Shown: one piece after another, positions 127 through 61,913 of the stretch
Layout: every line of letters begins with the position of its first letter
Numbering within the stretch: the first letter of the stretch is position 1
NCBI RefSeq assembly: GCF_004010195.1
Contig: NC_057751.1
Coordinates: forward strand, 8,298,404-8,362,403
DNA length: 64,000 nt
Origin: Chiloscyllium plagiosum
Lineage: Eukaryota
Direction: 5' to 3'
Translations under genes and position numbers: made by a program
Notes under the pieces: model-generated
Database searches by the model: none
Told to the model about the DNA's origin: nothing
Seen by the model: the letters and a program-made list of their open reading frames with translations, nothing else

Positions 127-164
127 GATTCCTGAAGAAGGGCCTGTGCCCGAAACGTCGAATC
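127..164 (+). ncRNA. Minimal type I hammerhead ribozyme motif (family A)
   Basis: Stem I GATTC 127-131/GAATC 160-164; CTGAAGA 132-138; extra A139; stem II GGGC/GCCC 140-151; GAA; palindromic ACGT 155-158; predicted cleavage after C159 (GUC). Confidence 0.7.
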
Positions 165-255
165 TCCTGTGCCCTGGATGCTGCCTGACCTGCTGTGCTG
201 TTCCAGCAATAAAGTTTCAACTTTGATCTCCAGCATCTGCAGACCTCACTTTCTC
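129..255 (+). mobile_element. PLE-derived hammerhead mini-element, family A
   Basis: Starts TTCCTGAAGAAGGGC..GCCCGAAACGTCG and ends ...CTCACTTTCTC; perfect 15-bp TSD CTTTAAAAACCAGGA at 114-128 and 256-270. Confidence 0.85.
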
Positions 256-989
256 CTTTAAAAACCAGGACCACTGATAATGTTATATCACTTCAGCGGC
301 ACACTGAAGCATCGGCCTAAGTAATATCATCAGCACCCCAATGTGATGGGTTTCTTTCACAACCTTCAATGAGGATAATAACACCAGCTGGGCCAAGCTG
401 ACCTTAACAATAATTTAGGCTATAAAATCTAAGCACTCCTGTCAATTTGCAACAAACATTCGCATTCCAGATTAAATTGATGCAGAGCAATGTGCGCGTG
501 TAATTCAATTTTGGGATCCAGTTAATGAATATAAAACACTAACAGCTCAGTTGGTTCCTATTTATTGAGGTTTTATGAATCCCTCAATCGAATTAATGTT
601 CTTCAACCCCTTGGTAGACATCCAGGCCCCCACGAAGCTGAAACACATCTACCACTTAACTGAAGCTCATGTTAAAAATTAAACAGAGCTACATCAAGAA
701 CAATAGCTCAAAGATAACAAGGAATATTTCCATCACTTAATATGGATTTCAAAAGCTTCACATGTGGTGTAGACAGGTAACAAGTTGTGTCGCTGTAACG
801 AGGCCTTCCTGATTTGTTCAGAATAAAGTATTTCTGAAACGTAGTGACTCCTTGTCGCATGGATAAATGTAGGAACCACTTCAAATGCAAACATCCCACA
901 CTGACTTGCCAGTTAATGTGGTTTTGATCATTATTTCTGTGGGAGAATGTCTAATACAGGGAGAACTCTTAGATCTTCCACAATCGACA

Positions 990-2160
990 ACTTTGGTAAG
1001 TTGGTACCAATGGCATAGGTAAGAAGAGGGATGGAGTCCTGAAGGCTGAATTTGGGGAGTTTGGAGCCAAATTGAAAACCAGGATCTCAAAAGGTAGTCA
1101 TCTTCAGATTACTACCTGTGCCACATGCTATTTAGGCTAGGAACTGGCAGACTAGGCAGTTTGATACGTGGCTGGGGAGGGAGGGCCTTAGATTTCTGAA
1201 TAATGTGGACCATTTCTGGGCAAGGTAGGACCTGTTCAGGATGGACAGTCTTTACCCAAAGCGACGGCACCAACATTCTTGCGGGTGATTTTGCTAGCTT
1301 TGTTGGGTGGTCTTTAAACTAGTTTGGCAATGGGATGGGAACTGAAGTGGAGGATCTGAGTTAGCTATAATCAGTGAGGGCTTAAGGGAAAAGAGAATCA
1401 AGATAGTAAATAAAAAGCAAGAAGCAGCTGAGCAGTGCAGCACTTAGATTAGTGCAAACCACATAGTCACAGAAAAGAGCGAGAATGCTTGAAAACAAAG
1501 GTTCCTCTGGTGAAGGTGTTACAATTCAAGAAGAAAGCATTAAAAACTAGCATGAGGGCACTTTACCTGGTAAATTAGTTGACATCACAAATCATCATGA
1601 ATGAGTATGAATTCATGCCCATTACAGAGACATAGCTGCAGGGTGGTCACGACTGGGAGTTAAATATCCAGGGGCATCAGACTATTTGGAAGGCCAGATA
1701 GAAAGGAAAGGGAGGTGGTGTAGCTCTGATAATTTGAGGACAACATCGGGGCGGCAGTGAGAAATGACGTCGGTTCGATGGAGAAAAAGGTTGAATCAAT
1801 TTGGGTGGAAATTTGAAATAGTAAGGGAGAAAAACACTGATTGACGTAGTCTGTAGGCCACCAAATAATAACATCATGGTGGGGCAGTCAATAAACAAAG
1901 AAATAACTGATGCATATCGAAATGGTACTACAATTGTCATGGGGGATTTTAGTCTACATATTGATTGGTCCAACCAAGTCAGTTAAGGTAGCCTTGAGGA
2001 CGGGTTCAGAGAATGGATCCCCAGTAGTTTCCTCAAACAGCATGTAATGGAACCCATGAGGGCGGAAGCTGTTCTCAATATGGTCCTATGTAATAAGTTA
2101 GAAATGATTGATCATCTCATAGCTGGGAATCCCATCAGAAGGAGCAATGACAGTATGGTT
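990..2160 (+). mobile_element. CR1-type LINE fragment (end of ORF1 plus APE endonuclease region of ORF2), decayed
   Basis: Interrupted translations ITET*LQGGHDWELNIQG..KGKGGGVAL and IVMGDFSLHIDW, typical of CR1 endonuclease. Confidence 0.8.
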
Positions 2161-2164
2161 GTGT

Positions 2165-3083
2165 TATCTGGCAGGATACATTTCGGAAATGACTGCCAGA
2201 CGACTCAGACCCCTTTGCATCATGGTAGCCCACAAACCTACCAACAAACTATAACAGCAGCTAATGAACTTGAAAGACCCTATACAGATAACAAGCAATA
2301 CTAATGTCATTTACAAAATACCTTGCAAGAACTGTAACAAACACTACATTGGACAAACAGGCAGAAAACTAGCCACCAGTACCTGTACATCAACTCATCA
2401 TAAAAAGACTTGACCTACTCTCACTAATATCCTTTCATACGGATGAGGAAGAACACCACTTCGACTGGGACAACACCACAAACCTACCAACAAACTATAA
2501 CAGCAGCTAATGAACTTGAAAGACCCTATACAGATAACAAGCAATACTAATGTCATTTGCAAAATACCTTGCAAGGACTGTAACAAACACTACATTGGAC
2601 AAACAGGCAGAAAACTAGCCACCAGCATACCTGTACATCAACTCATCATAAAAAGACTTGACCTACTCTCACTAGTATCCTTTCATACGGATGAGGAAGA
2701 ACACCACTTCGACTGGGACAACACATCTATCCTTGGACAAGCCAAACAGCGACATGCACGAGAATTCCTAGAAGTATGGCATTCCAACTGGAACTCTATC
2801 AACAAACACATTGACTTGGATCCCATTTACGACCCCCTGAGAAAAAGAACCGGAAATGACATCACCATAGGCAATTGCATCATCACAGGAAATGACATCG
2901 CCAACCCAAGGAAACTGAAACACATAATAGAAAGCGGGCTACACCACCAGTGCTTCATCCGAGGCTCACTGAAGATGTTACCTAGTATGATGATGAAACG
3001 TTTGAAAGCGAACCTTCCAGCTCAGCGAGCAAACCTACATCCAGAACCTCAACCTGAGCTACAAATATTCTCAAAAACTCACT
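2165..3083 (+). mobile_element. Penelope-like element 3' fragment (GIY-YIG region plus pLTR with hammerhead motif, family D)
   Basis: GIY-YIG peptide followed by CTGAAGATGTTACC..GAAACG and a 3' tail; related copy on the minus strand at about 22210-22500. Confidence 0.85.
2230..2721 (+). repeat. 246-bp tandem duplication inside the PLE endonuclease region
   Basis: CACAAACCTACCAACAAACTATAAC starts at 2231 and again at 2477. Confidence 0.9.
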
Positions 3084-3085: not shown

Positions 3086-3455
3086 ACTGCAGAGGGAAGT
3101 AGATCGGTTAAGTGAGTGGGCAAGGATCAGAAAGTGTGGCGCTGGAAAAGCACTGCAATTCAGACAGCATCTGAGGAGCAGGAGAGCATAAGCCCTTGAA
3201 GGGAGGGCAAGGGTCTGGCAAATGGTGTACAATGTTGGAAAATATGAGGTCATCCATTTTGGTAGGAATAATAATAATACAGACTATTATTTAAATGGTG
3301 AAAAATTGCAACATACTGCTGTGCAGAGGGACCTGGGTGTCCTAGTGCATGAATCACAAAACACTGGTTTATAGATGCAGCGGTTTATTAAGATGGCAAA
3401 TGGAATACTGTCCTTTCTTGCTAGAGGGATGGAGTTTAAATACAGTGAGGTTATG
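3084..3455 (+). mobile_element. CR1 ORF2 C-terminal fragment, interrupted by a family A remnant (about 3128-3198, minus strand)
   Basis: KYEVIHFGRNN..., QRDLGVLVHES, KMANGILSFLARGMEFK motifs. Confidence 0.75.
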
Positions 3456-3457: not shown

Positions 3458-3541
3458 AAGAAGAGCTTATGCCCGAAACGTCGATTCTCCTGCTCCTTGG
3501 ATGCTGCCTGACCTGCTGCGCTCTTCCAACAACACATTTTT
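3458..3541 (+). mobile_element. Family A PLE/hammerhead fragment
   Basis: GCTTATGCCCGAAACGTCGATTCTCCTGCTCCTTGGATGCTGCCTGACC. Confidence 0.8.
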
Positions 3542-3789
3542 CTGCCATGTGATAAAGGCTTGCAATGTTAACAGTATGTAATTGCTCATGAGTACAGTTG
3601 ATGACAACTGATAGCCGAATGGTTATGTTTGAGCAGAAAATATGACCCTAAAAGATTTTCTATGAGTCCAGGTGTTTGAAGCAAATGATGTCAAATGCTG
3701 ATGGGAGTGGGATCTGAAGAATGCTCATGAGAACGTAAGAACATAGGAGGCAAGTCTTTCCATACAAAGGGAGATGAGTTCCTGTAACG

Positions 3790-4270
3790 GGCTGCAAGAG
3801 GAGGTGGTGGAAGCAGACACAATAGTGACATTCAAGAAGCACTCGAATGTGTACATGAATAGGAAAGGAATAGAGGGATGTGGATCCTGGAAGTGAAGGC
3901 AGTTTTAGTATGGAAGGGCAAAATGTGTCAGCGCAGGATTGAAGGACTGAACAGTCTGTTCCTTTGTTGCACTATTCTTTGTTCTATAAGAAATCAGAGT
4001 CGGAGTCGGGCATCTGGCCCATTGAGCCTGCTCTGCCACTCAACAAGACCATGACTGATCTTTTCATGGATTCAGCAGCACTTACCCGCCCACTCCCTGT
4101 AATCCTTAATTCCTTTACTGTTCAAATATTTATCTATCTTTGCCTTAAAAACATTCAATGAGGTAGCCTCAACTGCTTCACTGGACAGGGAATTCCACAG
4201 ATTCGTAACCTTTTAGATGAAGAAGTTCCTCCTCACCTCAGTCCTAACTCTGCTCCACCTTATTTTGAGG
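3790..4270. mobile_element. Two CR1 3'-end fragments (+ about 3790-3985; - about 3995-4270)
   Basis: GAGGTGGTGGAAGCAGACAC..GGGATGTGG on +; GAATTCCACAGATTC..GAAGAAGTTCCTCCTCA reads as CR1 on -. Confidence 0.65.
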
Positions 4271-4387
4271 GCATAAGCCCGAAACGTCGATTCTCCTGCT
4301 CCTTTGATGCTGCCTGACCTGCTGCGCTTTTCCAGCAACACATTTTTCAGCTCTGATCTCCAGCATCTGCAGTCCTCACTTTCTCCT
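4268..4387 (+). mobile_element. Family A PLE/hammerhead element, 5' truncated
   Basis: GGGCATAAGCCCGAAACGTCGATTCTCC...CTCACTTTCTCC. Confidence 0.8.
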
Positions 4388-4662
4388 AATTTATCACATG
4401 GCAGCACTGTTACCAACTCAGAAGATGTGGAATCTCACAGCACTCAAATAGTTATGGCTTGCATCATTTAATTCCCTTCAGCAAAGAGAAGCCAACCAAA
4501 AACAATCATGTGAAAAACTCAACAATCACAAGGACTAAATTTGACTACGTTCCACCAGGTAACATCAACAATCTCACACCATGCACTGTTCTTTGTCCCA
4601 ACAAACATGCCACCGACAAAGCAGACTGTTTAATGGACACTACACTGACCATGTAGTACAGA

Positions 4663-4866
4663 GGAGAAAGTGAGGTCTGCAGATGCTGGAGATCAGAGCT
4701 GAAAGTGTGTTGCTGGAAAAGCGCAGCAGGTCAGGCAGCATCCAGGGAACAGCAGAATCGACGTTTCGGGCAGAAGCCTGAAGAAGGGCTTATGCCCGAA
4801 ACATCGATTCTCCTGTTCCCTGGATGCTGCCTGACCTGCTGCGCTTTTCCAGCAACACACTTTCAG
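4663..4866. mobile_element. Family A head-to-head inverted dimer
   Basis: Minus arm 4663-~4777 and plus arm ~4778-4866; 14-bp TSD CCATGTAGT(A/C)CAGA at 4649-4662 and 4867-4880. Confidence 0.85.
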
Positions 4867-6515
4867 CCATGTAGTCCAGATGCAAACATATATGTGCACA
4901 CTTCTGTTTTTCCAGTCCAGTTCTGTGGGTATCCACCTGTCCATGTCCATTATGAAACATCATTCTACTATCTTTATTCCGGTCAAACTTCTCAATGCAT
5001 GGAGACTGAAATCACAACAGGAATTTACAGGAATTATAGAAATAGGAATTATAAGTTGACATCAACATTACCAACCAGTAGGTACTAAAGTGAAATGTCC
5101 TCCCACCTTGACTGAGTTGAGGCCTCAATCCCCTTCACCAAGTGTTCGTAGCTGATTGAGGTCTCCTGGATCTGTCAACCCACTCTTTCACCTCCCACAA
5201 CACCCAGAATCCATTCATGTCTTCCCTCTCCACATTGGCACCTACATTTTTCTCTCTCCTCCCCACACAACCATATTTCTATCTCTCTCCCACAATCTCT
5301 TTCCGTCAGACTCCCATCTCTCTTTTTCTTGGATTCTCTGTTGAGTTTTCTCCCCCTGAGCTACCCTGGTTTCACTCCCCGATTTTTCCTGATGTCTACC
5401 CCTGTCCCAGGTCTCTCCCCACCCCAACAACCTCACGTTTCCCTCGTCTCTTTCCCAAGTCTCCATGGTTTCGCCTCCCAAATCTCCCTGGTTCTTCGAC
5501 ACACCTGCCATACACTGTCCCGATCTCCTACTCCAAATGCCAACACAGCTGTGGCCAAGCTTTCTGAGACCATGCTCAGGACAGGAAGTAGTGTCAAAGG
5601 GGTGTTAGGTTTAAACCTAGGAGAAAATCTGGTTTTGATGCTGGGAGCTGCAGAGAAACTGCGGACAGCAGACCGAGAATATCAAGTCAGTGGAAGAGCA
5701 GGAGGGAAGCTGAAGTACGGAACTGATCACAAACGTTATCTTTGGATAGTTCATGAGGCAACAGCACAACAAAAGTTGGAGTGCCTGGAAAATGAGAGTC
5801 AGAGCTCAATCACTCCATCATGAGGGGCCACACAAATTCATGAGTGTTGCCGCACCCAGCACAACTGGGGTCACCTAATGAGAGGCGTTCGGCCAATTAG
5901 GAATTAATGGGGATCTGGCTTTGCAATTTTTCATGGTTATCGTCATTTTTACGGTTACCACTGCTTTTCTGATTATCATTCATTTTATAGTTATCTGAGT
6001 TTTTATAGTTCTCATAGTTTTTTTATGGCTGTCATCATTTTTATTGTTTATTGTTTTTACAATTTCTTATGATATTATTGGCTTTATGATGAGTAGAAAG
6101 TTTTTTTTGCACAAAACCAAAATTAATGAATTCAAATCCTACTTCCCATTAATTTTCTACTGCATTTTGTCAGTTCATAAATTGCAGATTGCATTTGTTG
6201 TCAATTTCATGCCTATGGGAGCTCCCTTTTGATGCCCTGGAGAGCTTTCAGTTGATGCCGATGTGAGAGTGTTGATGTCAACTGGAGAACTTCATTTTGA
6301 TGATTTAACATCGCACCCAGCGCTTTAACATCTCTTGCCATTTCATTTGCTCCAAACAGTAACATTTGATGCCAAATGAGAGTCGCGTTATCTTTCAAAT
6401 TGTTCCAACCACAAACAATTTCAACATATTTTTGGTAGGGTCATCTCAAGGTTTGCTGTTTTTTTGGAGGCAACACTTCAACAGAAAATACCAAGATCCA
6501 AAATAAAGCTGAAGA

Positions 6516-6868
6516 CATGAGAGGCATAGATCAGATGAATAGATTAGATCTTTTTTCCAGGGTAGGGGAGTCCAAAACTGGAAGGTATAGGTTTAAGGTG
6601 AGAGGGGAAAGATTTAAAAGGGACCTGAGGGTCAACTCTTTCATGCAGAAGATGGTGTGTGTCGGGAATGAGTTACCAGAGGAAGTGGTGCAGTTTGGTA
6701 ATAAACAACCTTTAAAAGGCTTCTGGATGGCTACATGAATAACAAGAGTTTAGAGGGATATGGGCCTAGTGCTGACAACTGGGACTAGATTGATTTAGGA
6801 TATCTGATCAGCTTGGACGAGTTGGACTGAAGGGTCTGTTTCCATGCTGTTCATCTCGATGACTCTAT
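6516..6868 (+). mobile_element. CR1/HER1-type LINE 3' end
   Basis: MRGIDQMNRLDLFSRVGESKTGRYRFKVRGERFKRDLR; 3' UTR GGACTGAAGGGTCTGTTTCCATGCTG. Confidence 0.85.
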
Positions 6869-7489
6869 GTTTTGGACATGCTGGTTGAATTTGCTTTTCG
6901 CTCCAGAAAGTAATTGCAAATTCTAACCCCGTGACCAGTCACCTCGTAATGGATGGAACATAAAGATTGATTTTGAATTCACACTAACACTGTTGAATTT
7001 CGCCTTTGGGGATCCAAGCCACACAAAACCCATGTTTACACTGCAGACTGTGACCCACAGTTCAGCTCTGGGAACTAAATGTGCTCTGGTTTGACAGCTG
7101 AATCTGGGCAATGCTGTGAGCAGGCACCAATTCTGTGTGTGTATTATCTTCAGTGTTAGTGCTCTGTAAGTCATACAGCCAACACAGATGCAATGACGGG
7201 CCATTGATGACCTTCCTTGACAATCCATCCTGTCCCACACCTGACTGCCACACCTTGTGTGTCACAGTACATAATCTCACCATCTCACCCAAAACCACAT
7301 GATTAAAAAAACATTCCAAATTGGGGAAAGCATTCCTGTCCAAAACAAGTGAAAACTCCCAACATCCCCTACCGAACATACTCTGGTTTTGGCAATGGGA
7401 ATTAATCCAGGAGATCACTCTGATTCCGAACATTTGCTCTCTATCATCTCAGCCAGGTTAATCCATGGTTAAACTGCTCGAGTGGGAGT

Positions 7490-7706: not shown

Positions 7707-7965
7707 TTATACCAGGAGGGCGGAGGATTGATCAGCAAGTGAAGGATAGAGATTCTTCTCCCTACAGCCCCCAAATCATCAACTCAGGTCTGTTGAGAAA
7801 GACCTACTTACGAGATAGGAGCCTGGGCGACGTTGCCGATGTGACAGGTTGGACGAGATAGTGATGGAAACGGCAACCAGGTATGGCATGGATTTGTGCC
7901 TGTCATCCAAATCTCGCCTTTCATAAGCCTTTTTGTGTTTGCAATGGTAGTATCCCTACCGCTGG

Positions 7966-8440
7966 AGCAGAAGCAAAAACAGAAGTTGCTGGAAAAACTC
8001 AGCAATAGACAAACAGGAGGCTGGAAGAACACAGCAAGACAGGCAGCATCAGGAGGTGAAAAAGTCAACGTTTCAGGTATAACCCTTCTTCAGGAATGGA
8101 GGTGGGGATAGGGAGAGCTGCAGATAAAGAGAGGGGGAAGGTTATGGGTGGGGAGACAGCGAGTGTTGACAGGTCAACACAGTAGGTGAATATGACCTGA
8201 CTGCTGTTTCCTTCCAGCCTCCAGCTCGTCTACTTTGGATTCCAGCATCTGCAGTTTTTTTTTTGACTCTGCTGCTCAGCAGGTCTGGCAGCACTTGGGA
8301 AGAGAAATCAAAGTTAACATTTCGGGTCCCATGACCTTCTGAGGAATTTCTCTTCACAGGTGCTGCCAGACCTGCTGAGCTTTTCCAGCATCTTCTGTTT
8401 TGGTGTCTGATTTGCAGCATCCACAGTTCTTTCAGTTTTC
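7966..8440. mobile_element. Cluster of PLE-derived elements (family B and an A-like variant) in both orientations
   Basis: Minus strand reads TTCCTGAAGAAGGGTTATACCTGAAACGTTGAC (about 8065-8097); GCTGCCAGACCTGCTGAG arms inverted around 8270-8440. Confidence 0.7.
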
Positions 8441-8936: not shown

Positions 8937-9224
8937 TTAGATTAGATTCCCTACCGTATGGCAACAAGCCATTTGGCCCAACAGGTCTACACTGACCCTC
9001 CAAAGAGTAACCCACCCAGACCCATTCCCTTACCCTATACTTACCCCCGACTAATGCACCGAACACTATGGGCAATTCAGCATGGCCAGTTTACCGAACC
9101 TGCACATCTTTGCGTTGGGGGACAAACCCGAGTACCCGGAGGAAACCCACACAGACACGGAGAGAATGTGCAAACTCCACACAGGGGTGGGAATTAAATC
9201 CAGATCCCTGGCGCTGTGCCACCC
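8937..9224 (-). mobile_element. HE1/V-SINE
   Basis: V-domain GGAGGAAACCCAC..GTGCAAACTCCACAC; (TTAGA)n tail. Confidence 0.85.
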
Positions 9225-9559
9225 AAAAAAGCTTTAGTAAGTCATCCTTTGTCAGCTGGTGTCTCTCTACCCTTCCCCCTTTTTTGAGGAGTCCTGTCTG
9301 GAAGACGAACCGCCACACTCTCCAACACAGGCAAGGCTCCTCCACCTCGCTCTACCCTATCAAACTCCCTCATTCCCCCCACTATCCTACCTCACTCCCC
9401 ACTGCCTACACTAGCCCTCCTTAAATCTAACCCCTTGACTACTCCCCGCTAACCCTCTCTCCCTCTCATCACCCTCTATCTGCCCACTGGTTCTGCTTAA
9501 CCTCGAACTTGTCACTGACTAGGGGTAAATCACAGGTTACACCACCTTACCCCAGTTCC

Positions 9560-9868
9560 AACCATACAGCTCAGCACCATCCCCATGGCCTATCCCAACT
9601 GTCAGTTTTCCTTCCCACCTCCTCTCTGACCCATCACCTTCACCCCACTTCCATCCACCTACTGCACTCTCAGCTACCTTCTCCCCAGCCCCATCCCCCC
9701 TTCTATTTATCTATCCATCCCTGAGGTTGCCAGCCTCATTCCTGATGAAGGGCTCCTGCCTGAAATGTCGATTCTCCTGGTCCTCGGATGCTGCATGACC
9801 TGCTGTGCTTTTCCAGCACCAAACATTCATGACTCTGACCTCCAGCATCTGCAGTCCTCACTTTCTCC
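9560..9868 (+). mobile_element. Family A PLE 3' region with upstream C-rich segment
   Basis: CATTCCTGATGAAGGGCTCCTGCCTGAAATGTCGATTCTCC...CTCACTTTCTCC. Confidence 0.75.
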
Positions 9869-10359
9869 GAGTAGATCGCAGGTAGGCAAGTGTGCATCAT
9901 TTCAGCCACTCAGCCTCCCATGGTGTGTGGCATCAGCACAGAACAAAGTCAGGCAGAGAAGGGACAGCTGCTGTCAAAAATAGACCTCAAGTGCAGTAAA
10001 CCAGGAAGTGGCACTCCATCAATGACACCACTGTTTGGGAGAGAGCATTAAGCTATGGCTGCAATTTCCACATTCAGCGTGGAAGGTGCAGCAAAACCAA
10101 AGCAGCAGAGAGGTCTGCCAACATTCGTCCCGCAGGCAACACTGTCCCCACACACCTGGCCAGTCATCTCCCCGCTGTTATGAGCTGGTTTTCTGGTAAG
10201 TGGTTGGCGTCAGCAAGAGAACTGCTTTTTTTTTGAGAAACTGTGCCAAGGCTTGACACAAACGTCATAGGCAGTAAATCAGTTTGTTTCCCCATTGGAC
10301 GTTGCCCAATGCCATTCGAAAATAAATTGAAGTTTCTAAGACTTCCTGAAGGACATCTT

Positions 10360-10689
10360 TTAGATTAGATTAGATTAGATTACTTACAGTGTGGAAACAG
10401 GCCCTTCGGCCCAACAAGTCCACACCGAACCGCCGAAGCGTAACTGACCCAGACCCATTTCCCTACATTTATCCCTTCACCTAACACTACGGGCAACTTA
10501 GCATGGCCAATTCGCCTGACCTGCACATTTTTTGGATTGTGGGAGGAAACCGGAGCACCCGGAGGAAACCCACGCAGACACGGGGAGAACGTGCAAACTC
10601 CACACAGTCAGTCGCCTGAAGCGGGAATTGAACCCGGATCTCTGGCGCTGTGAGGCAACAGTGCTAACCACTGTGCCACCGTGCCGCCC
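10360..10689 (-). mobile_element. HE1/V-SINE, full length
   Basis: tRNA-like head GGGCGGCACGGTGGCACAGTGGTTAGCAC (box A), GGGTTCAATTCCC (box B), V-domain, (TCTAA)n tail. Confidence 0.9.
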
Positions 10690-11095
10690 ACCCACTGTGC
10701 CAAGGTACCGCCCACAATACCTCTCAAATAAAATGTTTTCCCTTGTGCTATGGGCTGCTGGGGCACATCTTGATTTTTATGGTCCAATTTGGCATGCATT
10801 TCAGGATCATATCTGATTTTGTTAGAAGTTAATGTTTCATCGCGATTTGAAATCTCTGTGGTTCAGTGAATAATGGTGTTCAGGAAGTGCTTTCTCGAGG
10901 GAATGAGTCTTTGTGTCAACTGTGGATGTTGTCTAGGTTGGACAAGAAAAAATGGCGTTATCACGACAGGTACTTTGTGCACTTCAGTACTTCAGCATTT
11001 TTTTTGTGGTAGAGGGAATGAGGGCTCCAAGTACATTTAGCTCTGTCAAAGGATCAGCACAGATATCATGGGTGACTGGACTCCTTCCATGCTGT

Positions 11096-11271
11096 CAAGA
11101 TTAGAGTGCTGCTGGAAAAGCACAGCAGGTCAGGCAGCATCCGAGGAGCAGGAAATTCGACGTTTTGGGCAAAAGCCCTTCGTCAGGAATGTCGGATGCT
11201 GCCTGACCTGCTGTGCTTTTACAGCACAACTCTAATCTTGACTCTAATCTCCAGCATCTGAAGTGTCCACA
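11096..11271. mobile_element. Family A inverted dimer
   Basis: 14-bp TSD TCCTTCCATGCTGT at 11082-11095 and 11272-11285. Confidence 0.85.
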
Positions 11272-11295
11272 TCCTTCCATGCTGTGTAATTTACT

Positions 11296-11480
11296 CATGA
11301 TTTGGAGATGCCGGTGATGGACTGGGGTGTACAAAGTTAAAAATCACATAACACCAGGTTATAATCCAACAGGTTTAATTGGAAGCACTAGCTTTCAGAG
11401 TTCTGCTCCTTCATCAGGTGGTTATGGACAAACATCTGATGAAGGAGCAGCGCTCCAAAAGCTAGTTGTGTGATTTTTAA
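11296..11480. mobile_element. Family C PLE/hammerhead inverted dimer
   Basis: CTGATGAAGGAGCAG..CTC.(G)AAAGCTAG on both strands; 14-bp TSD CTGTGT(A/C)ATTTACT at 11282-11295 and 11481-11494. Confidence 0.8.
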
Positions 11481-11720: not shown

Positions 11721-11976
11721 TTAGATTAGATTAGATTAGATTACAGTGTGGAAACAGGCCCTTCGGCCCAACAAGTCCACACCGACCCGCCGAAGCGAAA
11801 CCCACCCATACCCCTACATTTACCCCTTACCTAACACTATGGGCAATTTAGTATGGCCAATTCACCTGACCCTGCACATCTTTGGACTGTGGGAGGAAAC
11901 CGGAGCACCCGGAGGAAACCCACGCAGACACGGGGAGAACGTGCAAACTCCACACAGTCAGTCGCCTGAGGCGGGT
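11721..11976 (-). mobile_element. HE1/V-SINE, 5' truncated
   Basis: V-domain and (TTAGA)n tail. Confidence 0.9.
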
Positions 11977-12871
11977 ATGTGATATTACAAACAGCCCATT
12001 TCTTTGGTCTACATCCCTGGTGAGCGCAGATGCAGGTTGAACTTGCCCTACCAAAGTGATCATTGATTACATTACTTTTTAAATCAATCTTTCAAACTAA
12101 GAACAATACAGCACAGGAACATACCCTTTGGCCCTCCAAGACTGCGCCAACACATTTTGCCCTTCCACATTAAAACTGCCTTCACTTTCAGGATCCAAAT
12201 CCCTCTATTCCCGTCCTTTTATATACTCGTCCAGGTGCTTCTTGAATGCTGCTCATGCTTTCTGAAATAATTTCCCAGAGGTTGGTATCCCGTCACCCTA
12301 TATTTAAACATGCACAGTACATTGCACTGACCCTGCTAGCTCAGAGCTAGCTCTAAGTGTGAGCAGAAATCCTGACACTCCTGTTTCTATCCTTAACCAG
12401 GGATCCTGGATTGGACCAGATTCATGGCCCCAGTTGGGGATCTCATAGTCAATTGGATCCACCTGGCCAACCTCGTTGCAATCACGACACTTTCAGGTGT
12501 GTTATGACACACTTGTATAGCAAGTGGGACTTGAACCTGGGCCCTTCTGGCTCAGAGCTAGGGGCACTACACTGTGCTCCCAAAGCCCATCATTGGCAAT
12601 ATTATGTTAATTAGATTAGGGAAGATGAGATTAGATTTGATTAACCCAAGGGAAAGTTTGTACAATTCCTAACACAAAACGCTGAGTTTACAAGTATTTT
12701 TGGTGATCACACGTGGAACACAGCATACAGTTTTGGGTGTCCTGCCTTGAAACGACATAAGTCTATACTCATATGGTGCCTTTGACCATAAGCATCACAA
12801 GGGTGCTTCCCAAGGGCAGTGCAGAACAAAATCTGATGCCGGGTCACACAGGAGACTTTCAGTCACATTGG

Positions 12872-12985
12872 AGAAAGTGAGGTCTGCAGATGCTGGAGAT
12901 CAGAGTTGAGAGTGTGGCACTGGAAAAGCACAGCCAGTCAGGCAGCATCTGAGGAGCAGGAGAATTGACGTTTCAGGCAAAAGCC
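12872..12985 (-). mobile_element. Family A PLE/hammerhead element
   Basis: AGAAAGTGAGGTCTGCAGATGCTGGAG...GACGTTTCAGGC; flanks GTCACATTGG/GTCAGATTGG. Confidence 0.8.
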
Positions 12986-15269: not shown

Positions 15270-16125
15270 CACAGAAAGTAAGAGCAGAGGGCGGCCATTT
15301 GCCCCTTCAAGCCTACCCTGCCACTTGACACAAAAGGTAGACAAGAGGTGAAAAGGGATTGACAAAGTAGATGCAGGGTGGATGTTTCCCTAAAAGTGGG
15401 AGGTCACAGATTTGGGCTAAGGGGTGGCAGGTGTGAAATACAGATGAACTCAGAACCCTGAAGAAGACTCGCTGGACTCAAAACGTTCACTGTTGCCTTT
15501 CTTTCCGTAGACGCTTCCAGACCTGCTGAGTTTCACCAGCAATTCCTCTTGATGTTTGTTTTAGATTTACAGCACCTGCAACTCCTGGTTTCTTTATATC
15601 AGAGATGAGGAAGAATTATTTGCCTCAGAGGGAAATTCCCTGCACCAGCCCGCAGATGGACTCCGGGCCATTGAGTGAATTTAAGGGGATGGAGAGGGTT
15701 TGAGTCAGGAAAGGGTTGAAGGGTTATGGGGAGCTGGCAGTGAAGTGGAGTTAATGCTGAAATAAGGGTCACAGTTTTATCGAATGGCAGCGCGGGCTCA
15801 AGGGCTGAATTGCTAACTCCTGCTCCTCCAACCCATACCCTGCCTGTTCCCATTTTCTCCCAAAATTCATTGATCCCTTCAGCCTTCAGAACATTTTCCA
15901 ACATTCCTCTTGGAAACATGCTTCGGGTCTTGACCACTCTCTGTGGCAGAGAATTCCACAGGTTCACCACTCTCTGGTAAGGAAGTTTCTCCTCACGTCA
16001 GTCCCGAACGACCTACCCCACATCCTTAGAAGACGACCTCACGATAGGGACTCCCCGTTCATCGAGAACATCCTTCCAGTGTTGACCCTGCCTGGTCCTG
16101 TTGGAATTTTGTAGGTTTCTCTTTC
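15270..16125. mobile_element. Patchwork of CR1 3' fragments with a family B PLE element (about 15455-15590)
   Basis: VNLWNSLPQRVV on minus strand; CTGAAGAAGAC..GGACTCAAAACGTT..AGACCTGCTGAG insert. Confidence 0.6.
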
Positions 16126-42452: not shown

Positions 42453-42586
42453 CCATTCCTGATGAAGGGCTTTTGCCCGAAACATCAATTTCAAAGCTCC
42501 TTGGATGCTGCCTGAACTGCTGTGCTCTTCCAGCACCACTAATCCAGAATCTGGTTTCCAGCATCTGCAGTCATTGTTTTTACCTC
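42453..42586 (+). mobile_element. Family A PLE/hammerhead element inside SINE fragments
   Basis: CATTCCTGATGAAGGGCTTTTGCCCGAAACATC. Confidence 0.8.
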
Positions 42587-46119: not shown

Positions 46120-46278
46120 TGTCGAGAGTGTGGTACGAGAAAAGCACCTTCATCAGGAACGGCTTATGCGCGATGGGTCGATTCTCCCGCTCCTCGGATG
46201 TTGCCTGACCTGCTGTGCTTTTCCAAAACCACACTCTCGATTCTGATCTCCAGCATCTGCAGTCCTCACTTTCTCCTC
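46120..46278. mobile_element. Family A inverted element
   Basis: 13-bp TSD TTATTGCTTGCAG at 46107-46119 and 46279-46291. Confidence 0.8.
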
Positions 46279-47502: not shown

Positions 47503-47808
47503 ATAAGATTAGAGTAGATTAGATTAGATTACTTTACAGAGTGGAAACAGGCCCTTTGGCCCAACAAGTCCACACCGACCCGCCGAAGCGCAAACCACCC
47601 ATACCACTACATTTACCCCTTACCTAACACTACGGACAATTTAGCATGGCCAATTCACCTGACCTGCACAGGTTTGGACTGTGGGAGGAAACCGGAGCAC
47701 CCGGAGAATGTGCAAACTCCACACAGTCAGTCGCCTGAGGCGGGAATTGAATCTGGGTCTCTGGCACTGTGAGGCAGCAGTGCTAACCACTGTGCCACCG
47801 TGCCGCCC
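47503..47808 (-). mobile_element. HE1/V-SINE
   Basis: Head, V-domain and (TTAGA)n tail. Confidence 0.9.
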
Positions 47809-47816
47809 ACAAAGTG

Positions 47817-49344: not shown

Positions 49345-49745
49345 TAGAGTATCAGAGGCTGGGGGGGTGACCTTATAGAGATTTGTAAAATCATGAGAGG
49401 CATGGATAGGGTAAATAGACAAGGTCTTTTCCCTGAGTGGGGGAGTGTCGAGCTAGAGGGAATAGTTTTAAGGTGACAGGGGCAAGATTTAAAAAGGACC
49501 TAAGGATCTAATTTTTTCACCAGAGGGTGGTGTGTGTGTGGAATGGGCTGCCAGAGGAAGTGATGGACGCTGGTCCAATTACAACATTTGAAAGACATCT
49601 GGATGGGTACATGAATAGGAAGAGTTTTAGAGGACATGGGTCAATTGCTGGCAAATGGGACGAGATTAGGTTAGGATATCTGATCGGCATGCATGAGTTG
49701 GACCGAAGGTTCTGTTTTCATGCTGTACATCTCCACAACTCTACG
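49345..49745 (+). mobile_element. CR1/HER1-type 3' end
   Basis: VCVWNGLPEEVMDAGPITTFERHLDGYMNRK. Confidence 0.85.
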
Positions 49746-49782
49746 TTCACTTCCATGTTCCATTTGTGTTGGAATTGGGGTG

Positions 49783-50280: not shown

Positions 50281-51543
50281 TTAGAGTAATCCCGCCCAGA
50301 TGGTTTCCAATCTCACCATAAACTCTTGTGGACGCAGATAAAACAGTAAAGGAGGCTTCCAGAATGTCCGAAAAACAGCAGGGCAGACTAATGAACAAAA
50401 AAATGAAGAATTTTCTGACCTCTGTGAAAGATTTGCCAATCAGCCTCATTATCACTATTTGCCACAATAAACCAAAGCAGTACACAAACAAAATCATAGC
50501 TGACATAGAAGGTCAGGGAACATTATCTCCTCGATTATATTAATTAATGCAGGGTCAAAAGTGTTGCGCCTTTCTGCCAGGGAACTTGATAGGAATGCGT
50601 AGTCAATATTTACAAGAGCAAGGCATTTAGCGCACCATTTATCTTTGTCGGGGACCGTGCATTTTGGAGGAGCTGCTGCCCTATTCCTTCGAAAGGCCAA
50701 CGAAGTAAATGGAAGACAGAATGCAGGCAGACCACAGTGCAGCTGGATTCACTGCAAGTTAACCTGCACTGTTTTCATGGACGATCGGGATGGGGGAGGT
50801 GGCACAATAAAACACAAATTGGCTGATGTGCAACTCAACATTAACAGCACCAGTACGTTAGTCGCCTTGGAAACGAGCCACCGTTACATAGACTCAATCA
50901 AAATAATTCAGTCAGTGGGTGTACAAATGAATGCAAAGTGTAACCTTTGAAACTTGTAAGTGCAGTGCCCAGCAACTGAAATGTTATCTCCACTTCCTAT
51001 TAGCATGAATTATTCTCTGCTCTTTTTAGGGAGCCTCCCAACAATTGCAGAACTTAACAGGATGGGATTCTTCATCCTAACGTTATCCTGACAGCTGCCG
51101 ATGGTTCAGATCCTCAGGGTCATCCAAACTCACTCTGCAAGTGTTCCTGCATCACCAGCGCTGACAGGTGTTGACAGGAGCAGGAAATCTGGACTGCGAG
51201 GTTTAGGCAAGGAAGATTTGCATTGGCGTGGCACCTTGCATGAGCTTAGAGACAGTTCCCCTTCCTTTTGAAATGTAGTCGCTCCTGCAGCGTCACAAAC
51301 ACTTTTCATATCATGCTCCCACAAACAACAATGTGGTGATGAAAATAATCACATCCAGTGATACTTTTTCTTGTTTTTTTTCATGGTATGTGAGGCATTG
51401 CTGGCTGGAGGAAATCAGCAGAAAAGGATGGAGAGTTACACTGATAGATTCAGGTGAGCATATTGGGAGGACACTTGACTGCAGTACTGAAATAACTGCA
51501 CAGAGGTCAGTCTCCCATCACCGAGCCCCCCTTTATTTACTTG

Positions 51544-51636
51544 GTTAAAAATCACACATCACCAGGTTATACTCCAACAGGTTTAATTGGAAGCACACTA
51601 GCTTTCGGAGCGACGCTCCTTCATCAGGTGATTGTG
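51544..51636 (-). mobile_element. Family C PLE/hammerhead element
   Basis: Homologous to the 11296-11480 and 44262-44831 arms. Confidence 0.85.
51596..51630 (-). ncRNA. Minimal type I hammerhead ribozyme motif (family C), intact core
   Basis: Minus strand: CAC-CUGAUGA-A-GGAGC(GUC)GCUCC-GAA-AGCU-A-GUG. Confidence 0.7.
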
Positions 51637-52150: not shown

Positions 52151-52297
52151 GTTATATTGTTTGGCCAGGGCTTCCGAAGTGACCCAGGTTAACAACAACC
52201 CCAATCAAGAACCTTGTAATCAAACAGCTCCACCTAATACCAACCACTACAGTATAAATGGATTGGTCGGGCCAAATGACCTGATTCTATGCCATGT

Positions 52298-52398
52298 GTT
52301 CTGAAGGAGGGTCACTCAACTCGAAATGTTAACTCTAATTTCTCACCACAGACACTGCCAAACCTGCTGATCTTTTCCAGCAATTTCTATTCTTGTTG
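52298..52398 (+). mobile_element. Family B PLE/hammerhead element (decayed)
   Basis: GTT-CTGAAGG-A-GGGTC..AACTC-GAAATGTT-AAC..CCTGCTGATCTTTTCCAGC. Confidence 0.7.
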
Positions 52399-53252
52399 TC
52401 TATGCTACATGAGCTGTGTGCATCTCTGTCGCAAATATTCCCATGCCATGACATAGATACTGTTGATCAACCTATTTCCATGTGTTGTGACCCACCGCTG
52501 GAGCAGGTGGGACTTGTATCCGGGGACTTCTGACCAAGAGGCAGGGACGATGCCACTGCACCGCAGTGACACCCACAACCTATAATGTGGAGCGACATAC
52601 TTGGGCAATTCTGCATCTGAGAACATGAATCATTTTCTTGAGGGGCCATCATCTGGCCCCCTCACATTTCACTTTTCAAGATAAAAGCAATTTCATTCAT
52701 TGTAACATTACTGTTACCAGCATTCGATGGGAAGGCAGTCATTTAACCAAGCGATATTTCCCCAGCGTCCAACAGCATTTTTTTCTCCTGACAGACATTT
52801 CTTTTTTTTGTGATGTTTAAGTACTTAACATGCAAGCAACAATCAGGTCAGTGTGTTCATGTTGTGTCCTAAAGTCAATTACTTGCCTGGTTTGAAGAAC
52901 ACATTTTATGTCAGGAGAGATTTCACGGTTGATGCTTTTTCTGAGTCTCTGTTTTTCTTAACATTATTCTATCCATGCACCGCAATTCCATTTTGTGGTG
53001 GAGCAGCTTGAGCTCCCAAAAATATCATAGATCAATCAGTGCCGCTAGATCTGTGTAGCTTAGCTGCTTGTGTTTGACGTGGAAGGTTATTAATGGGTAT
53101 TTAACCATTCTAGTCAGAGGCAGGTCCCAGTGGAGATAAAAGTTAATAGATAAGTTGAATTAATTCAGATATTCATACGTCTGAATTATTGTCATTCAAG
53201 AACGCCGGAGAAACAGTCATGTCTTCAGGTCAAGCCACCTCCGAAGTTGGAG

Positions 53253-56039: not shown

Positions 56040-57400
56040 CAGTGATAACCCTGAAAACTGGGATAAATTCAGAGCCCAACAGAGGACAAAAAAAGTAACA
56101 AAGACAAAGAAAGTAAACTGAGAGGGAAACCAGCAAGGAATATAAAAACTAACAATCAGAGCTTCTTCCGCTGTATAAAAAGAAAGAGAGAGATCAAAGT
56201 GGAGAGAAGCCCCTTGCAGATGAATCTGGGGAGACCGATTTGGGGAATAAGGAACTAACAGAAGGATTAAAGAGATATTTCACATCAGTCTTTTTGTTAG
56301 AAAATACTTCAAACATCCCACTAATGTGAAAGAATACAGGGAGGACTTAAGTACCATTACAATCACGAGACATGTAGTAATGGACAAACTAATGGAACTG
56401 ATGGAAGATAAATCTCTTGGCCGTGAAGGCTTGCCTCTGAAAAGAGATGGCTACAGACATCGTTGATGCATTGTTTGTCATTTTCCAAAAGTCCTTGGAC
56501 TCTGGATTGGAAAGCTGCAAAAGTGACACTCTGACTCAAAAAGGGAGGGAGTAAAACTTAGGTAACTATTGGCTGATTAGCCTAAAGTCTATTGTTGGAA
56601 AAGTACTGGAGTCAATTTTGATCGAGGTAATAGCAGAACACAAGGAAAATCACAATCAAAACAAGCAGACACAGTATGTTTTCATGAAAGGTAAGGAGTG
56701 TCTGACTGATTTGTTAGTTTTTCAAGGAAGTCTTAACTGGAATGAACAGAAGTGAACCAGAGGAAGGGTAACTCTTAGCTCTGATTTCTCTCCACAGGTG
56801 CTGCCAGACCTGCTGAGCTTTTCCAGCAATTTCTGTTTTTAAACCTATAGGAGTGTGGCATTGGGACTTCTAAAGGTTAAGTCATAAGATAAGAGTCCGT
56901 ACTCTTCAAGGTAATGTATTGGCATGGATAGAGAATTGGCTCATGGGCAGGATACAGCGTGTGGGGATAAGGGATGCTTTTTCAGGTTGGCAACCTGTGA
57001 CCAAAGGAAATCCACAGGAATCTGTGCTGGGACCACAACAGTTTACAATGTTTACTCATGACCTGGCAGAAATAAGTGAATGTATTGCAGCCAAATTTGC
57101 AAAAGTAGATGGAAAGATAGGTTGTGAAAGAGATACTAACAACTTAAAGTGATCTATTAATAGGTTAAGTGGACAAAAGGTTGGCAAATGGAGTATAATA
57201 TGAAGAGAAAACAAAACTATCTAACTGGAGAAAAGTGCAGAAAGCTACAAAACAAAGGGACTTGGGGCCTACAAAACACAGAAAGCCGGTGCACAGATAC
57301 AGCAGGTAATCAGAAAGGTTAATGGAATACTGGGCCTGAATTCAAGGGGTTTCGAGTTTAAAGGTCGGAAAGTCTGAGTGCAACTGTACAAAGATCCTTA
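56040..57400 (+). mobile_element. CR1 ORF2 (RT) fragment with a family B insert at about 56760-56840
   Basis: GNY.LISLKSIVGKVLESI; AWIENWLMGRIQRVGIRDAFSGWQPVTKGNPQESVLGP. Confidence 0.85.
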
Positions 57401-58456: not shown

Positions 58457-58900
58457 AGGAGAAAGTGAGGACTGCAGATTAGATTACTTACAGTGTGGAA
58501 ACAGGCCCTTCGGCCCAACAAGTCCACACCGACCCGCCGAAGCGTAACCCACCCATACCCCTACATTTACCCCTTTACCTAACACTACGGGCAATTTAGC
58601 ATGGCCAATTCACCTGACTTGCACATCTTTGGACTGTGGGAGGAAACCGGAGCCCCCGGAGGAAACCCACGCAGACACGGGGAGAACGTGCAAACTCCAC
58701 ACAGTCAGTCGCCTGAGTCGGGAATTGAACCCAGATCTCTGGCGCTGCGAGGCAGCAGTGCTAACCACTGTGCCACCGTGCCGCCCACTGATGCTGGAGA
58801 TCAGAGCTGAAAAATGTGTTGCTGGAAAAGCGCAGCAGGTCAGGCAGCCTCCAAGGAGAAGGAGAATCAACGTTTCGGGCATAAGCCCTTCTTCAGGAAT
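58457..58900 (-). mobile_element. Family A PLE/hammerhead element split by HE1
   Basis: AGGAGAAAGTGAGGACTGCAGAT | HE1 | GATGCTGGAG...CGTTTCGGGCATAAGCCCTTCTTCAGGAAT; intact hammerhead core at about 58865-58900. Confidence 0.85.
58479..58786 (-). mobile_element. HE1/V-SINE, full length
   Basis: Head, V-domain and tail; CpGs retained. Confidence 0.9.
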
Positions 58901-59449
58901 CCTGATTATTGTGGCTTCTTTCTTGGCCAATGATGAGATCTTAGTTGTCTGCTCATCTTCTGAGGTGTATTTCAGTTTCCAAATATTTCACCCTTTTGTC
59001 CAAACAACAACTTGCATTTAAATAGCGTCACTCACACAATGAAACATCCCCTTGCCCTTCACATCCTTGGCAGGACCAATATCAAGCAAAGTCTGAGACT
59101 GAGCCTCAGAAGGAAATTCCCAAGCAGATGACCGAAAGCATGGTCAAAGAGAGAGAGTTTTAAGAGCACCCGAAATGGCGTGAGAGAGAGGGATAGTGAG
59201 ATAGAGAGTTTTGGGGAGGGAACTTAAAAGCTGAGAAATTTTCCACTGCCTCTCAAAGGACGGTTCAGATCTTGGCTCAGAGTAGGCAAGTATCTCCAGC
59301 TTGCAACATGGACCTCTCTCAGCTTGACAGTAAGGATGGCAGACATGGCTTCAAGAGGCCAGAATTACAGTGCTCAGAGATTTAATAGGGTCATGGACCT
59401 AGAGGGTACTAATTTTGACATTCTGCTACTTTGTGAAGGATGCGGGGGG

Positions 59450-59668
59450 GTCAGTTAGCTCAGTTGGCTGGACAGCTGGGTTGCGAAGCTGAGTGACGTC
59501 AACAGGGAAGGTTCAATTCCCACACTGGCTGAGGTGACCATGAAGGTCACCTCTTTCTCAACCTCTCCCTCAAGTTAAACCACCATCACTCATCTCTCTC
59601 TCTCTCTCTCTGCCTCTCACTCTACAAGGAGAGAGCAGCCCTATTGTCTGCAAGAACAACGGTGATTT
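59450..59668 (+). mobile_element. Second-family tRNA SINE
   Basis: TTAGCTCAGTTGGCTGGACAGC..GGTTCAATTCCCACACTGGCTGAGG. Confidence 0.75.
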
Positions 59669-59825
59669 TACTGTGCTCAACACAGGGAGCTGGTTGAGCA
59701 ATGAGAACAAGTGATGTCACGAAGACAGAAGAGAAATGGAAGCTCTGATCTGGAATGCGAAATGCGTTGTTGCTCATGGCTTGAGGGTGATAGGAACAGG
59801 GATAAAAACCAGGTGATTAATCACG

Positions 59826-60176
59826 GAATCATAGAATCCCTGCAATGTGGAAACAAGCCATTTGGCCCATTGAGTCCACACCGACCTACCTTAGAGTGAC
59901 CCACACTCCATATCCTATTCCAGTAACCCTGTATTTCTCAAGGCTAACCTACCTAGTCTGCACACCCCTCAACATTATAGGCAATTTAACATGGCAAATC
60001 CACCGAGCCTGCACATCTTTGGACGGTGGGAGGAAAACGAGCACCCGGAGGAAACCCACGCAGACACGGGGAGAATGTGCAAACTCCACACAGACAGTCG
60101 CCTGAGGGTGGAATCGAACCCGGGTCCCTGGTATTGTGAGGGAGCAGTGCTAACCACTGAGCCACCATGGCTGCCC
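59826..60176 (-). mobile_element. HE1/V-SINE
   Basis: Head, V-domain and tail. Confidence 0.9.
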
Positions 60177-61691
60177 TTTTGTTGGGGGTCCCTGACCTGA
60201 AATCTGCGGCTCTCTTGGAGGGAGGAATGCAAGTTCGAACTCATTGGGCTGACCCAATCTGGGGACAAAGTCCTGTCTCGAGATAAAGAAGGGCACATGG
60301 TAGAGATCATAAATCCGTGCCCCAACAGCTTTGCAAATGGAAATAGAAATTTGCTGGATAAACTCAGCAGGTCTGGCAGCATCTGTGGAGAGAGAAACCC
60401 AAATCAACATTTCCGATCCAGCAGCCAGTGTTTATGAAGCATTAAACTTGGGCATTTCTGAACAGTACCTTGAAACTGTGAACAATGTTTTAGTTGCTAA
60501 CAACAAGAATAAAAATCTTGGTGATAATTACAGCATTCAAAATTTAACCTATTTGTTTATATTTGGAAAAGTAGTACAAATTAAGATGAAAAAAAGATGT
60601 GGTGCCATTTTGACTCCCGTGTTTCTCCAAATAGTATTTGTAATCAGAAAATTTACAAACTATCAGCATGAAAACCCACATAATTAGCCAATAATATTCA
60701 TATGATATGATAACTATCAACATGGGGCAGGCGATTTCTGAAGAACTCTCCATCGACTGCAAGGATAGTCTTTCCCTGAGGCCTAATACACTTTACCTCG
60801 TGTGAAAAATAAAATTCACATCGTTGTCCGCATCAACTCAGACACACCAATGTGTTAAAAGTCATGAATTTTGTCCAAGACATATTTTTTGATGTCTGCC
60901 CTTGGGTTCAAGTCATTTTCAGGAGTGAGCGATAACTGCTAAAAGCTGAAGAAATATGTCCCAGCAGTGAATAACATAATCAGAATTCGGAAAATAGCAA
61001 TGACAGCCCCAGTTTGAAAAGAACAAGGTCGAGCCCAGATTCTCCAAAGAAGGTGAGGCAACACAATTAAAAGGCATTGGAACCTTATTTTCAAGGCATT
61101 CAAATCCTCTGGGGGGTGGGGGTGGGGGGGAGCCCAATTCCAGCCTGAACAAATTAAAACCCTTCTTACGTTTCAAATTCTCAGTGTCAGCATGTCAGGA
61201 GTGTTGCAAATCCCTTGTCCATGAGAATGTACAAATTCTGAGCAGCAGTCGGATGTTCAGCCCCTCAAATATGCTCTGTCCTTTGATAAGATCATGCCTG
61301 ATTTAATTGCAGCTTCAACTCCCACTCTCCTGTCTATCCCATTCCCCCGAACCCTTTGATTCCCCTGTCAATCTCAATCAAACTCGGACTTAAATGTATT
61401 CAGCAGCCCAGCCTCTGCTGCTCTTTGAGCAAGTGTTCTACAGACCAAGGGCCCTTTAAAAGGAAAACAAAAAGAGACCTCCACATCTCCATCCTAACTG
61501 GAACACCCTTATTTTTGAACTGAGTCCTCTTGTTCGAATCTCTCTTAAGGAGGAAACACCATCTTAGCATCCATGCCCCTCAACTCTCCTCAGGATCTTC
61601 AATGTTTCAACAAGATCACCTCTCAATTGTTGGAAACAAGCCTAGCCTGACTCATCTCTCCTCCCAGATCACTTGCCCATTCCCGGTGTCA

Positions 61692-61913
61692 GAGTTGAAA
61701 AGTGTGGCACTGGAAAAGGACAGCAGGTCAGGCAACCCCTCCAAGGAGCAGCAGAGTCCACGTTTCAGGCATAACACCCTGATTTCCTGATGAAGGACTT
61801 ATGCACACAACGTCATCTCTCCTGCTCCTCTGATGCTGCCTAACTCGTTGTGCTTTTCCAGCGCACAACACTTTTCGACTTTGACTCTTCAGCATCTGCA
61901 GTCCTCTCTTTCT
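61692..61913. mobile_element. Family A inverted dimer inside a minus-strand CR1
   Basis: 15-bp TSD CCATTCC(C/A)GGTGTCA at 61677-61691 and 61914-61928. Confidence 0.85.

Follow-up and report, generated by a model that had tools for sequence, protein, structure and literature searches.

Introduction

Minimal hammerhead ribozymes (min-HHRs) of Penelope-like elements (PLEs) were described by Cervera and De la Pena in 2014, together with their extra nucleotide, their palindrome and the covariation between families, and about 4,000 copies were counted in the coelacanth and about 9,000 in Xenopus (PMC4209133). What role the hammerhead plays in PLEs has yet to be settled (PMC8557442). In this study, the short repeats of a 64,000-nucleotide stretch of the shark Chiloscyllium plagiosum (G000:C42:8298404-8362403 of a 3.56-Gb assembly, hereafter the window) were investigated together with a sample of the same genome. 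We observed that these repeats are genuine minimal type I hammerhead motifs of PLEs, and that every family is the pseudo-long terminal repeat (pLTR) of such an element. We found no mention of sharks in the searchable text and one supplementary file of PMC4209133, nor any report of shark PLE hammerheads in literature listings, while a preprint on animal retrozymes covers one chondrichthyan, in which retrozymes are present (bioRxiv 10.64898/2026.07.22.740005).

The families are labelled by stem II as A (GGGC/GCCC), A' (GGGT/ACCT), B (GGGTC/GACYC), C (GGAGC/GCTCC) and D (GTTACC/GGTGAC), with D2 a relative of D present outside the window, and positions within copies are numbered from the C of CUGA as 0. 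With the metazoan PLE min-HHRs of PMC4209133 they share the core, the unpaired nucleotide between 9 and 10.1, the G10.1-C11.1 pair, a palindromic 15.2-16.2 where helix III is lacking, the coexistence of several covarying families in a genome, opposite-strand pairs and a majority of single motifs, which were ascribed there to truncated PLEs. They differ in stem II, which is mostly of 4-6 bp here, and in number, with some 10^5 intact cores against the two counts given above, under descriptors that are similar and not identical. Insertions of Neptune and of Penelope/Poseidon (PMC8557442, PMC3846280) likewise show pLTRs, a 30-40-bp tail at one end only, target site duplications (TSDs), an inverted 5'-truncated head-to-head copy and, in Neptune-type frames, a Cys linker. 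Unlike those insertions, most copies here are reduced to the module alone, with their 5' ends piled at the front edge of the hammerhead, and no statement of such a pile-up was found in the available parts of the two papers.

The anole Poseidon element PAc (Frangieh et al. 2024, PMC11167929) is similar in its two tail-defining start sites of reverse transcriptase (RT), in the extension of both strands and in the uncleaved template, and its open reading frame (ORF) starts at stem II, as does the family D frame of the shark. PAc was shown in vitro, whereas the present families are known from sequence; moreover, A-C appear to be Neptune-type, and the start codon of C stands after the tail and not within the ribozyme. 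Animal non-LTR retrozymes (bioRxiv 10.64898/2026.07.22.740005) have in common with our copies a type I hammerhead, a PLE derivation and a non-coding nature, but they are tandem units with at least two hammerheads, whereas the shark copies are solo or inverted.

Hammerhead fold and abundance

An original prediction, made from the window alone, had described one hammerhead fold with co-varying stems I and II and a palindromic tetramer, and at the family level this description holds. Pairing was counted on core-anchored column majorities, since MAFFT placed family C one column off, and the copies were not selected for the core. Over five families, 38/40 stem cells are paired, against a mean of 22 in partner shuffles, where 38 was reached in 0/200,000, and among the 120 family permutations the true assignment alone reaches 38; the five families are related, and the compensatory changes between them are not independent events. 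The two unpaired cells belong to A, whose third stem I pair is a U-U, and to D2, which has an A-G in stem II, while the G10.1-C11.1 pair and the palindromic 15.2-16.2 were each observed in 5/5 families. The four families of the prediction hold for the window, or five if counted strictly; the GGGT/ACCT form (A') is a relative of A, and a fifth family, D2, occurs elsewhere in the genome. Its TTC/GAA version of stem I also exists, but as the form of one young subfamily of A: the 3' strand reads GATT in 65/90 perfect-core copies, with the U-U mismatch at the third pair, and GAAT in 10/90. Loss of the palindrome in perfect-core A copies (ACAT in 16/90, ATGT in 12/90) is mainly CpG decay. Energy folding recovers stems I and II in some copies, by a method which cannot represent the core or a dimer helix III. 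The viroid precedent invoked for the extra nucleotide is unneeded, as this nucleotide is a conserved feature of PLE min-HHRs (PMC4209133).

Perfect cores were searched for with a type I hammerhead descriptor of the kind that had been proposed, allowing an insertion after A9 (CUGANGA, stem II of at least 3 bp, GAAA..UH, the extra nucleotide being optional), with 20 Markov shuffles giving the chance level. The window contains 10 perfect cores, against a mean of 0.25 in the shuffles, and 18 cores with at most one mismatch, against 4.05. The extra nucleotide is present in 10/10 perfect cores, the palindromic tetramer is intact in 6/10 and three stem I positions are paired in 4/10, and an Rfam search of the window gave no hammerhead match at E<=10. 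Family profiles, built from natural copies and controlled on reversed sequence, gave 35 matches between 126 and 61912 (18 A, 2 A', 8 B, 5 C and 2 D; reversed sequence 0), which amounts to one per 1.8 kb and about 27 insertion units. The earlier estimate of 25-30 repeats, one per 2-3 kb, was thus fair, although the core is absent or decayed in many of these copies.

For the genome, 160 stretches were sampled from contigs C1-C45, each 10 kb long and placed at a round-number position (1,559,169 non-N bases, unplaced contigs lying outside the sample). This sample gave 546 family matches (291 A, 124 B, 77 C, 30 D, 12 D2 and 12 A'; reversed 0), covering 3.5% of the sampled DNA at a bootstrap density of 3.07-3.78 per 10 kb, and 10 of the 160 stretches were without any match. 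The density of the window therefore holds genome-wide. Perfect cores numbered 134 (reversed sequence 0), 131 of them within family matches, and their density in the window is about twice that of the sample; the extra nucleotide was found in 130/134 under a descriptor that allowed both forms, the palindrome was intact in 89/134, and the palindrome together with three stem I pairs in 37/134. Across the genome, one 30-nt pattern of family A occurs 28,235 times without mismatch, and its reversed control 0 times. Extrapolation from the sample suggests about 1.2 million copies in the whole genome, about 0.3 million perfect cores and about 0.08 million of the strictest kind. The scale is the distinguishing point, with a copy number an order of magnitude or more above the published counts; as a ribozyme discovery, the finding is ordinary. 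Head-to-head pairs reach 58 per Mb of sample and are probably undercounted, since assembly gaps adjoin the 5' edge of the hammerhead in several young family A copies (L148, L122 and L046).

Parent elements

The modules run into the coding frames of PLEs. In the window, a broken GIY-YIG-type frame precedes the D module at 2966 by about 140 nt, and D modules were found 3' of an endonuclease frame in 29/30 loci examined, the window's own being one of the 30. A genome search with the endonuclease frame of this element returned 70,082 first-look candidates, and searches with A and C pieces returned 56,409 and 45,546, none of which are copy numbers. RT and a GIY-YIG-type domain occur upstream of long A, B and C copies, and in A and C a linker rich in Cys was observed between them. 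Three natural frames, of 726, 598 and 503 residues, stop shortly before the A, C and D modules, respectively. Most of the "long open frames" fetched from the genome searches were rejected as assembly gaps. Two full-length C copies (L232 and L086) display the pLTR, the hammerhead and the tail and then an ATG, some 125 nt beyond CUGA; this start codon is also where the long tail of short C copies stops. Direct pLTRs flanking the ORF were found for C only and not for A, B and D in the loci examined. In family D, A9, the extra U and G10.1 together make up an ATG, from which a frame stays open across the entire tail. As the modules run into RT-endonuclease frames and form the leader of C, the supposed 130-bp element is the pLTR end of a PLE plus its 5' leader. 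Nor is its length uniformly about 130 bp, as family A falls into two classes, of about 90-100 and 125-135 nt after CUGA, and some copies are far longer.

A Cys-rich linker marks Neptune elements (PMC8557442). It is absent in the D frames, and B is known from decayed frames resembling A; on the linker rather than on an RT tree, families A-C are accordingly classed as probably Neptune-type and D and D2 as probably Poseidon-type.

The original prediction of independent non-autonomous elements was not sustained, since the families continue upstream into RT-endonuclease frames and short and long copies of A belong to the same subfamilies. A copy is called short, or a stub, when it has less than 30 nt upstream in common with any other sampled copy. 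Clustering was carried out on family A alone (193 copies, 92 columns), and short and long copies mix in 6/6 clusters of at least 13 members, sometimes identical over 92 nt, so that no separate non-autonomous family was seen.

Two side observations concern these elements. Long copies of family B (L047:4660-4690 and related ones) carry a branch-point-like CTGAC, a pyrimidine run and a TAG about 13-30 nt upstream of the core, and B stubs start downstream of these; in D. virilis, an intron of Penelope ends at helix I (PMC4209133). Again, at two of 30 D loci (L021:~1930-2160 and L025:~1940-2290), independent family A insertions with a 14-15-bp TSD occupy the same spot of the D hammerhead, just after CUGAUGAUGUU, and a preference of family A for this target is possible.

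Copy ends, target site duplications and head-to-head pairs

Among anchored rows, stubs made up 151/217 in A (210 distinct), 75/86 in B and 48/64 in C, against 7/29 in D and 0/11 in D2, and the remaining copies extend upstream over a continuous range up to the ORF. Parent-like letters end at -4 in short A and B copies and near -8 in C; at base resolution, 49/246 family A 5' ends fall at -4 or -3 and 83/246 from -8 to -1. The edge of the stub in A, B and C is the A of a YCA (TCATT, TCAGT and CCACA), which we take to be initiator-like; stem I of A and B begins at this same base. An initiator-like TCACT has been noted in a rotifer pLTR (PMC3846280).

Repeats of 9-20 bp were searched at the copy edges, with mismatched flanks as controls. 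TSDs were detected on 15/66 A, 6/60 B and 3/11 C solo copies and on 27/37 A and 9/18 C head-to-head pairs, with 0-2 in the controls, which indicates that stubs were inserted short and that a pair is one event, and agrees with the proposed mobilisation by the RT and GIY-YIG endonuclease of PLEs. Stubs stop at one of two tail positions, and 31/37 A pairs join one long to one short tail (50% expected, p=2e-5, with a length threshold chosen after the two modes were seen). The arms of 18/21 pairs come from the same subfamily, against 5.0 by chance, in a core-anchored comparison used because raw identity between arms was too noisy; this agreement fits both fold-back priming and two RNAs of one locus. 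Head-to-head partners occur within 1 kb in 164/367 hammerhead-spanning copies.

Origin of the short copies

Taken together, the repeats are hammerhead and tail end modules of several PLE families, and the short copies are probably run-off by-products of the retrotransposition of autonomous elements from uncleaved RNA. The protein of the element would nick the target and start reverse transcription within the RNA, from either of two sites in the tail. A start in the tail of the 3' pLTR would give the ordinary 5'-truncated copies, whereas a start in the tail of the 5' leader would give a cDNA running off the first nucleotide of the RNA, 4 nt before CUGA. Where both nicked strands are served, a head-to-head pair with one long and one short tail would result, the second arm deriving from the source of the first, either through fold-back or through another priming. 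Nearly all copies contain sequence 5' of the cut site, which implies uncut templates. The hammerhead fold would be selected in the source elements, and the million genomic copies would be mostly inert and decaying. Several of these steps have a counterpart in the anole, where the PLE protein in vitro nicks and extends both strands, has two internal RT start points, which set the bounds of the tail, favours uncleaved RNA as substrate and is required for the cleavage of its hammerhead (PMC11167929). As for the edge of the stub, we lean slightly towards run-off at the first nucleotide of the RNA, at the initiator-like YCA before stem I; the alternative is an arrest, or microhomology joining, at stem I.

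A number of observations weigh against this account. In A and B the edge falls where stem I starts on its 5' side, and structure-based arrest would explain it equally well; family D has no sharp 5' edge (7/29 short); and no cap-derived G was seen before the edge (15/70 at -5, no higher than the flank). None of 200 long-tailed A and 63 long-tailed B matches continues from the tail into the start of an ORF. Regarding the parent elements, the endonuclease was assigned from motifs read by eye; Pfam gave no GIY-YIG match to the element frames and an RVT_1 match of E=9e-4, below the cut-off, and no intact ORF was seen in the loci examined, where assembly gaps interfere. In long A copies, private changes are rarer in the core (6/530, against a base-matched expectation of 14) than in the tail (72/2220), though anchoring of the copies on the core may bias this result and, in small clusters, changes of the source are hard to tell from those of the copy; inert decay alone does not predict this contrast, which speaks against inertness. 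The L103 pair (~5950-6150) could also reflect a decayed copy used as a template, or gene conversion. Its arms are identical over 81 nt and share non-majority changes.

These shared changes would also suit the strongest of the rival explanations, by which the stubs are self-propagating elements similar to short interspersed elements (SINEs), with their own internal promoter, copied in trans by the PLE protein and regenerating the same 100-130-nt unit. Stubs do outnumber long copies in A, B and C by the counts given above and have fixed ends and TSDs; Penelope pLTRs hold an internal promoter (PMC2377424), and rotifer pLTRs are enough in cis for mobilisation in trans (PMC3846280). However, such elements should form subfamilies of their own, and none of the six large clusters of 193 A copies is short-only, the ratio of short to long being alike in 5/6. 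We therefore consider a SINE-like propagation improbable. A more elaborate scheme, in which the mRNA starts at the hammerhead, stubs are "strong-stop" cDNAs, some re-enter through their own internal promoter, and some 10^5 cores in host transcripts are switched on in trans by the element protein, seems less probable still. If true, it would represent a retrotransposon-inducible RNA-cutting layer, along with some 200,000 long hairpins.

Possible self-cleavage of the copies

It is very unlikely, as judged from the letters of the copies, that they act within host transcripts as a functioning reservoir of self-cleaving RNA, whether assisted by dimers, chaperones or the PLE protein. The number of perfect cores (131 in 1.56 Mb, or about 0.3 million by extrapolation), the stem covariation across families and the scarcity of private changes in the core speak for such activity, as does the cleavage of the anole hammerhead once the element protein is added (PMC11167929). 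On the other hand, the motif lacks stem III; in published assays, a min-HHR monomer remained uncut and dimers cleaved little (PMC4209133), and 1/9 Xenopus dimers was cleaved (bioRxiv 10.64898/2026.07.22.740005). Partners for a dimer are also few, as a same-strand copy lies within 1 kb in 19/199 A, 8/82 B, 3/60 C and 0/26 D; head-to-head partners, present in 101/199 A, fold with their copies as long hairpins, and CpG decay has broken the palindrome in 28/90 perfect-core A copies.

Copy starts tell the same story. In the sample there is a small excess of A starts at +28..+30 (9/246), but genome-wide pattern counts give 547 starts at the cleavage site, +28, which is no commoner than +32 with 546, and 189 at +26; after correction for flank letters these become about 3040, 2430 and 1050, respectively. 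By hand count, 68 of the first 100 starts at +28 run into the inverted partner arm, so that microhomology accounts for the bump, and no clear cleavage footprint was found in the genome-wide patterns at +26, +28 and +32. A small fraction of the templates may have been cleaved. Most copies are without a tandem neighbour or are part of hairpins, and a clear footprint is not seen, which leaves the idea of a reservoir of self-cleaving RNA without support. The "very large reservoir of self-cleaving motifs" of the original prediction stands for the motifs but not for activity, about one quarter of copies having a perfect core and few having a same-strand dimer partner.

Finally, the copies could be non-LTR retrozymes, tandem 170-400-nt units replicating through circular RNA, and their ribozyme type and PLE origin agree with what was proposed for the retrozymes of animals, monomers included (bioRxiv 10.64898/2026.07.22.740005), but this is largely refuted for the present copies and hardly credible, as they are not tandem (same-strand neighbour within 1 kb in 30/367 hammerhead-spanning copies), hold the whole core upstream of the cut instead of cut-to-cut units and have ends that agree with PLE tail sites and TSDs, in a search that did not extend to tandem arrays elsewhere in the genome.

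Distribution of copies in the window

Solo stubs of family A lie at 129-255 (+; hammerhead 129-162, long tail, 15-bp TSD at 114-128 and 256-270), 27610-27706 (+; perfect core, short tail), 42454-42583 (+; perfect core, long tail) and 58783-58901 (-; perfect core 58866-58899). Profile matches revealed further A copies of lesser integrity: a fragment without core at 3123-3197 (-), a stub cut within the core at 3458-3563 (+), two long-tailed stubs from stem II onward at 4268-4389 (+) and 12867-12985 (-), and a copy with decayed core at 46149-46277 (+). The A copy at 9540-9874 (+; hammerhead 9739-9772, long tail) retains about 190 nt of upstream PLE sequence. Head-to-head pairs of A were found at 4662-4877 (long tail on the minus and short tail on the plus strand, 14-bp TSD at 4649 and 4867), where the pair folds as a single long hairpin of -174 kcal/mol, at 11103-11275 (14-bp TSD at 11082 and 11272), at 16539-16781 (14-bp TSD at 16527 and 16762) and at 61672-61912 (15-bp TSD at 61677 and 61914). 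The A' copy on the minus strand, with its hammerhead at 8064-8096, a short upstream extension and a partial inverted partner, spans 7959-8275.

Family B is represented by a head-to-head pair with decayed cores at 8214-8432, decayed copies known from profile matches at 15452-15591 (+) and 24261-24382 (-), a profile match lacking the 5' half of the core at 41520-41653 (+), a copy with one core mismatch at 52295-52433 (+) and fragments, again profile matches, at 56760-56852 (+) and 60319-60421 (-). Family C shows a head-to-head pair at 11290-11466 (perfect core 11386-11420 on the minus strand, 14-bp TSD at 11282 and 11481), a solo stub at 51504-51635 (-; perfect core 51596-51630) and a long inverted pair at 44224-44848, whose two outward hammerhead modules enclose about 380 nt of inverted upstream PLE sequence. 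The two family D copies keep parts of their parents: a 5'-truncated, apparently Poseidon-type PLE at 2230-3083 (+) consists of a broken GIY-YIG-type endonuclease remnant (2230-2830), the hammerhead (2966-3005) and a long tail, and a copy at 22195-22482 (-) has an upstream endonuclease remnant at 22398-22482. Within the former remnant, a 246-bp tandem duplication, 98% alike, was noticed at 2230-2724.

Pfam searches of 29/45 window ORFs gave nothing that reached the cut-off. Most Rfam matches to microRNA (miRNA) precursors in the window, all below the gathering score, fall on head-to-head pairs (4728-4837, 8273-8381, 11121-11215, 16620-16718 and 44406-44697), which may be a source of false miRNA calls or of real hairpin RNAs. 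Other repeats of the window include a direct duplication at 25763-27487, whose nearly identical units recur every 1109 bp; a dispersed family of about 320 bp, presumably an elasmobranch SINE, at 8939-9200, 10372-10693, 11722-12041, 23044-23361, 47515-47812, 58469-58790 and 59828-60179; and a second dispersed family of about 360 bp at 6512-6871, 18267-18597, 39902-40598 and 49383-49747.

Conclusions

The motif, the extra nucleotide and the solo copies are already known, and it is the scale and the insertion record that stand out in this study. The genome is an unusually large natural record of PLE insertion: copies begin sharply at the 5' side of the ribozyme, long tails are paired with short ones, and few signs point to cleaved templates. 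This record can test models of internal priming and of the formation of inverted copies. In addition, the many head-to-head pairs probably give rise to double-stranded RNA, to false miRNA calls and to gaps in the assembly.

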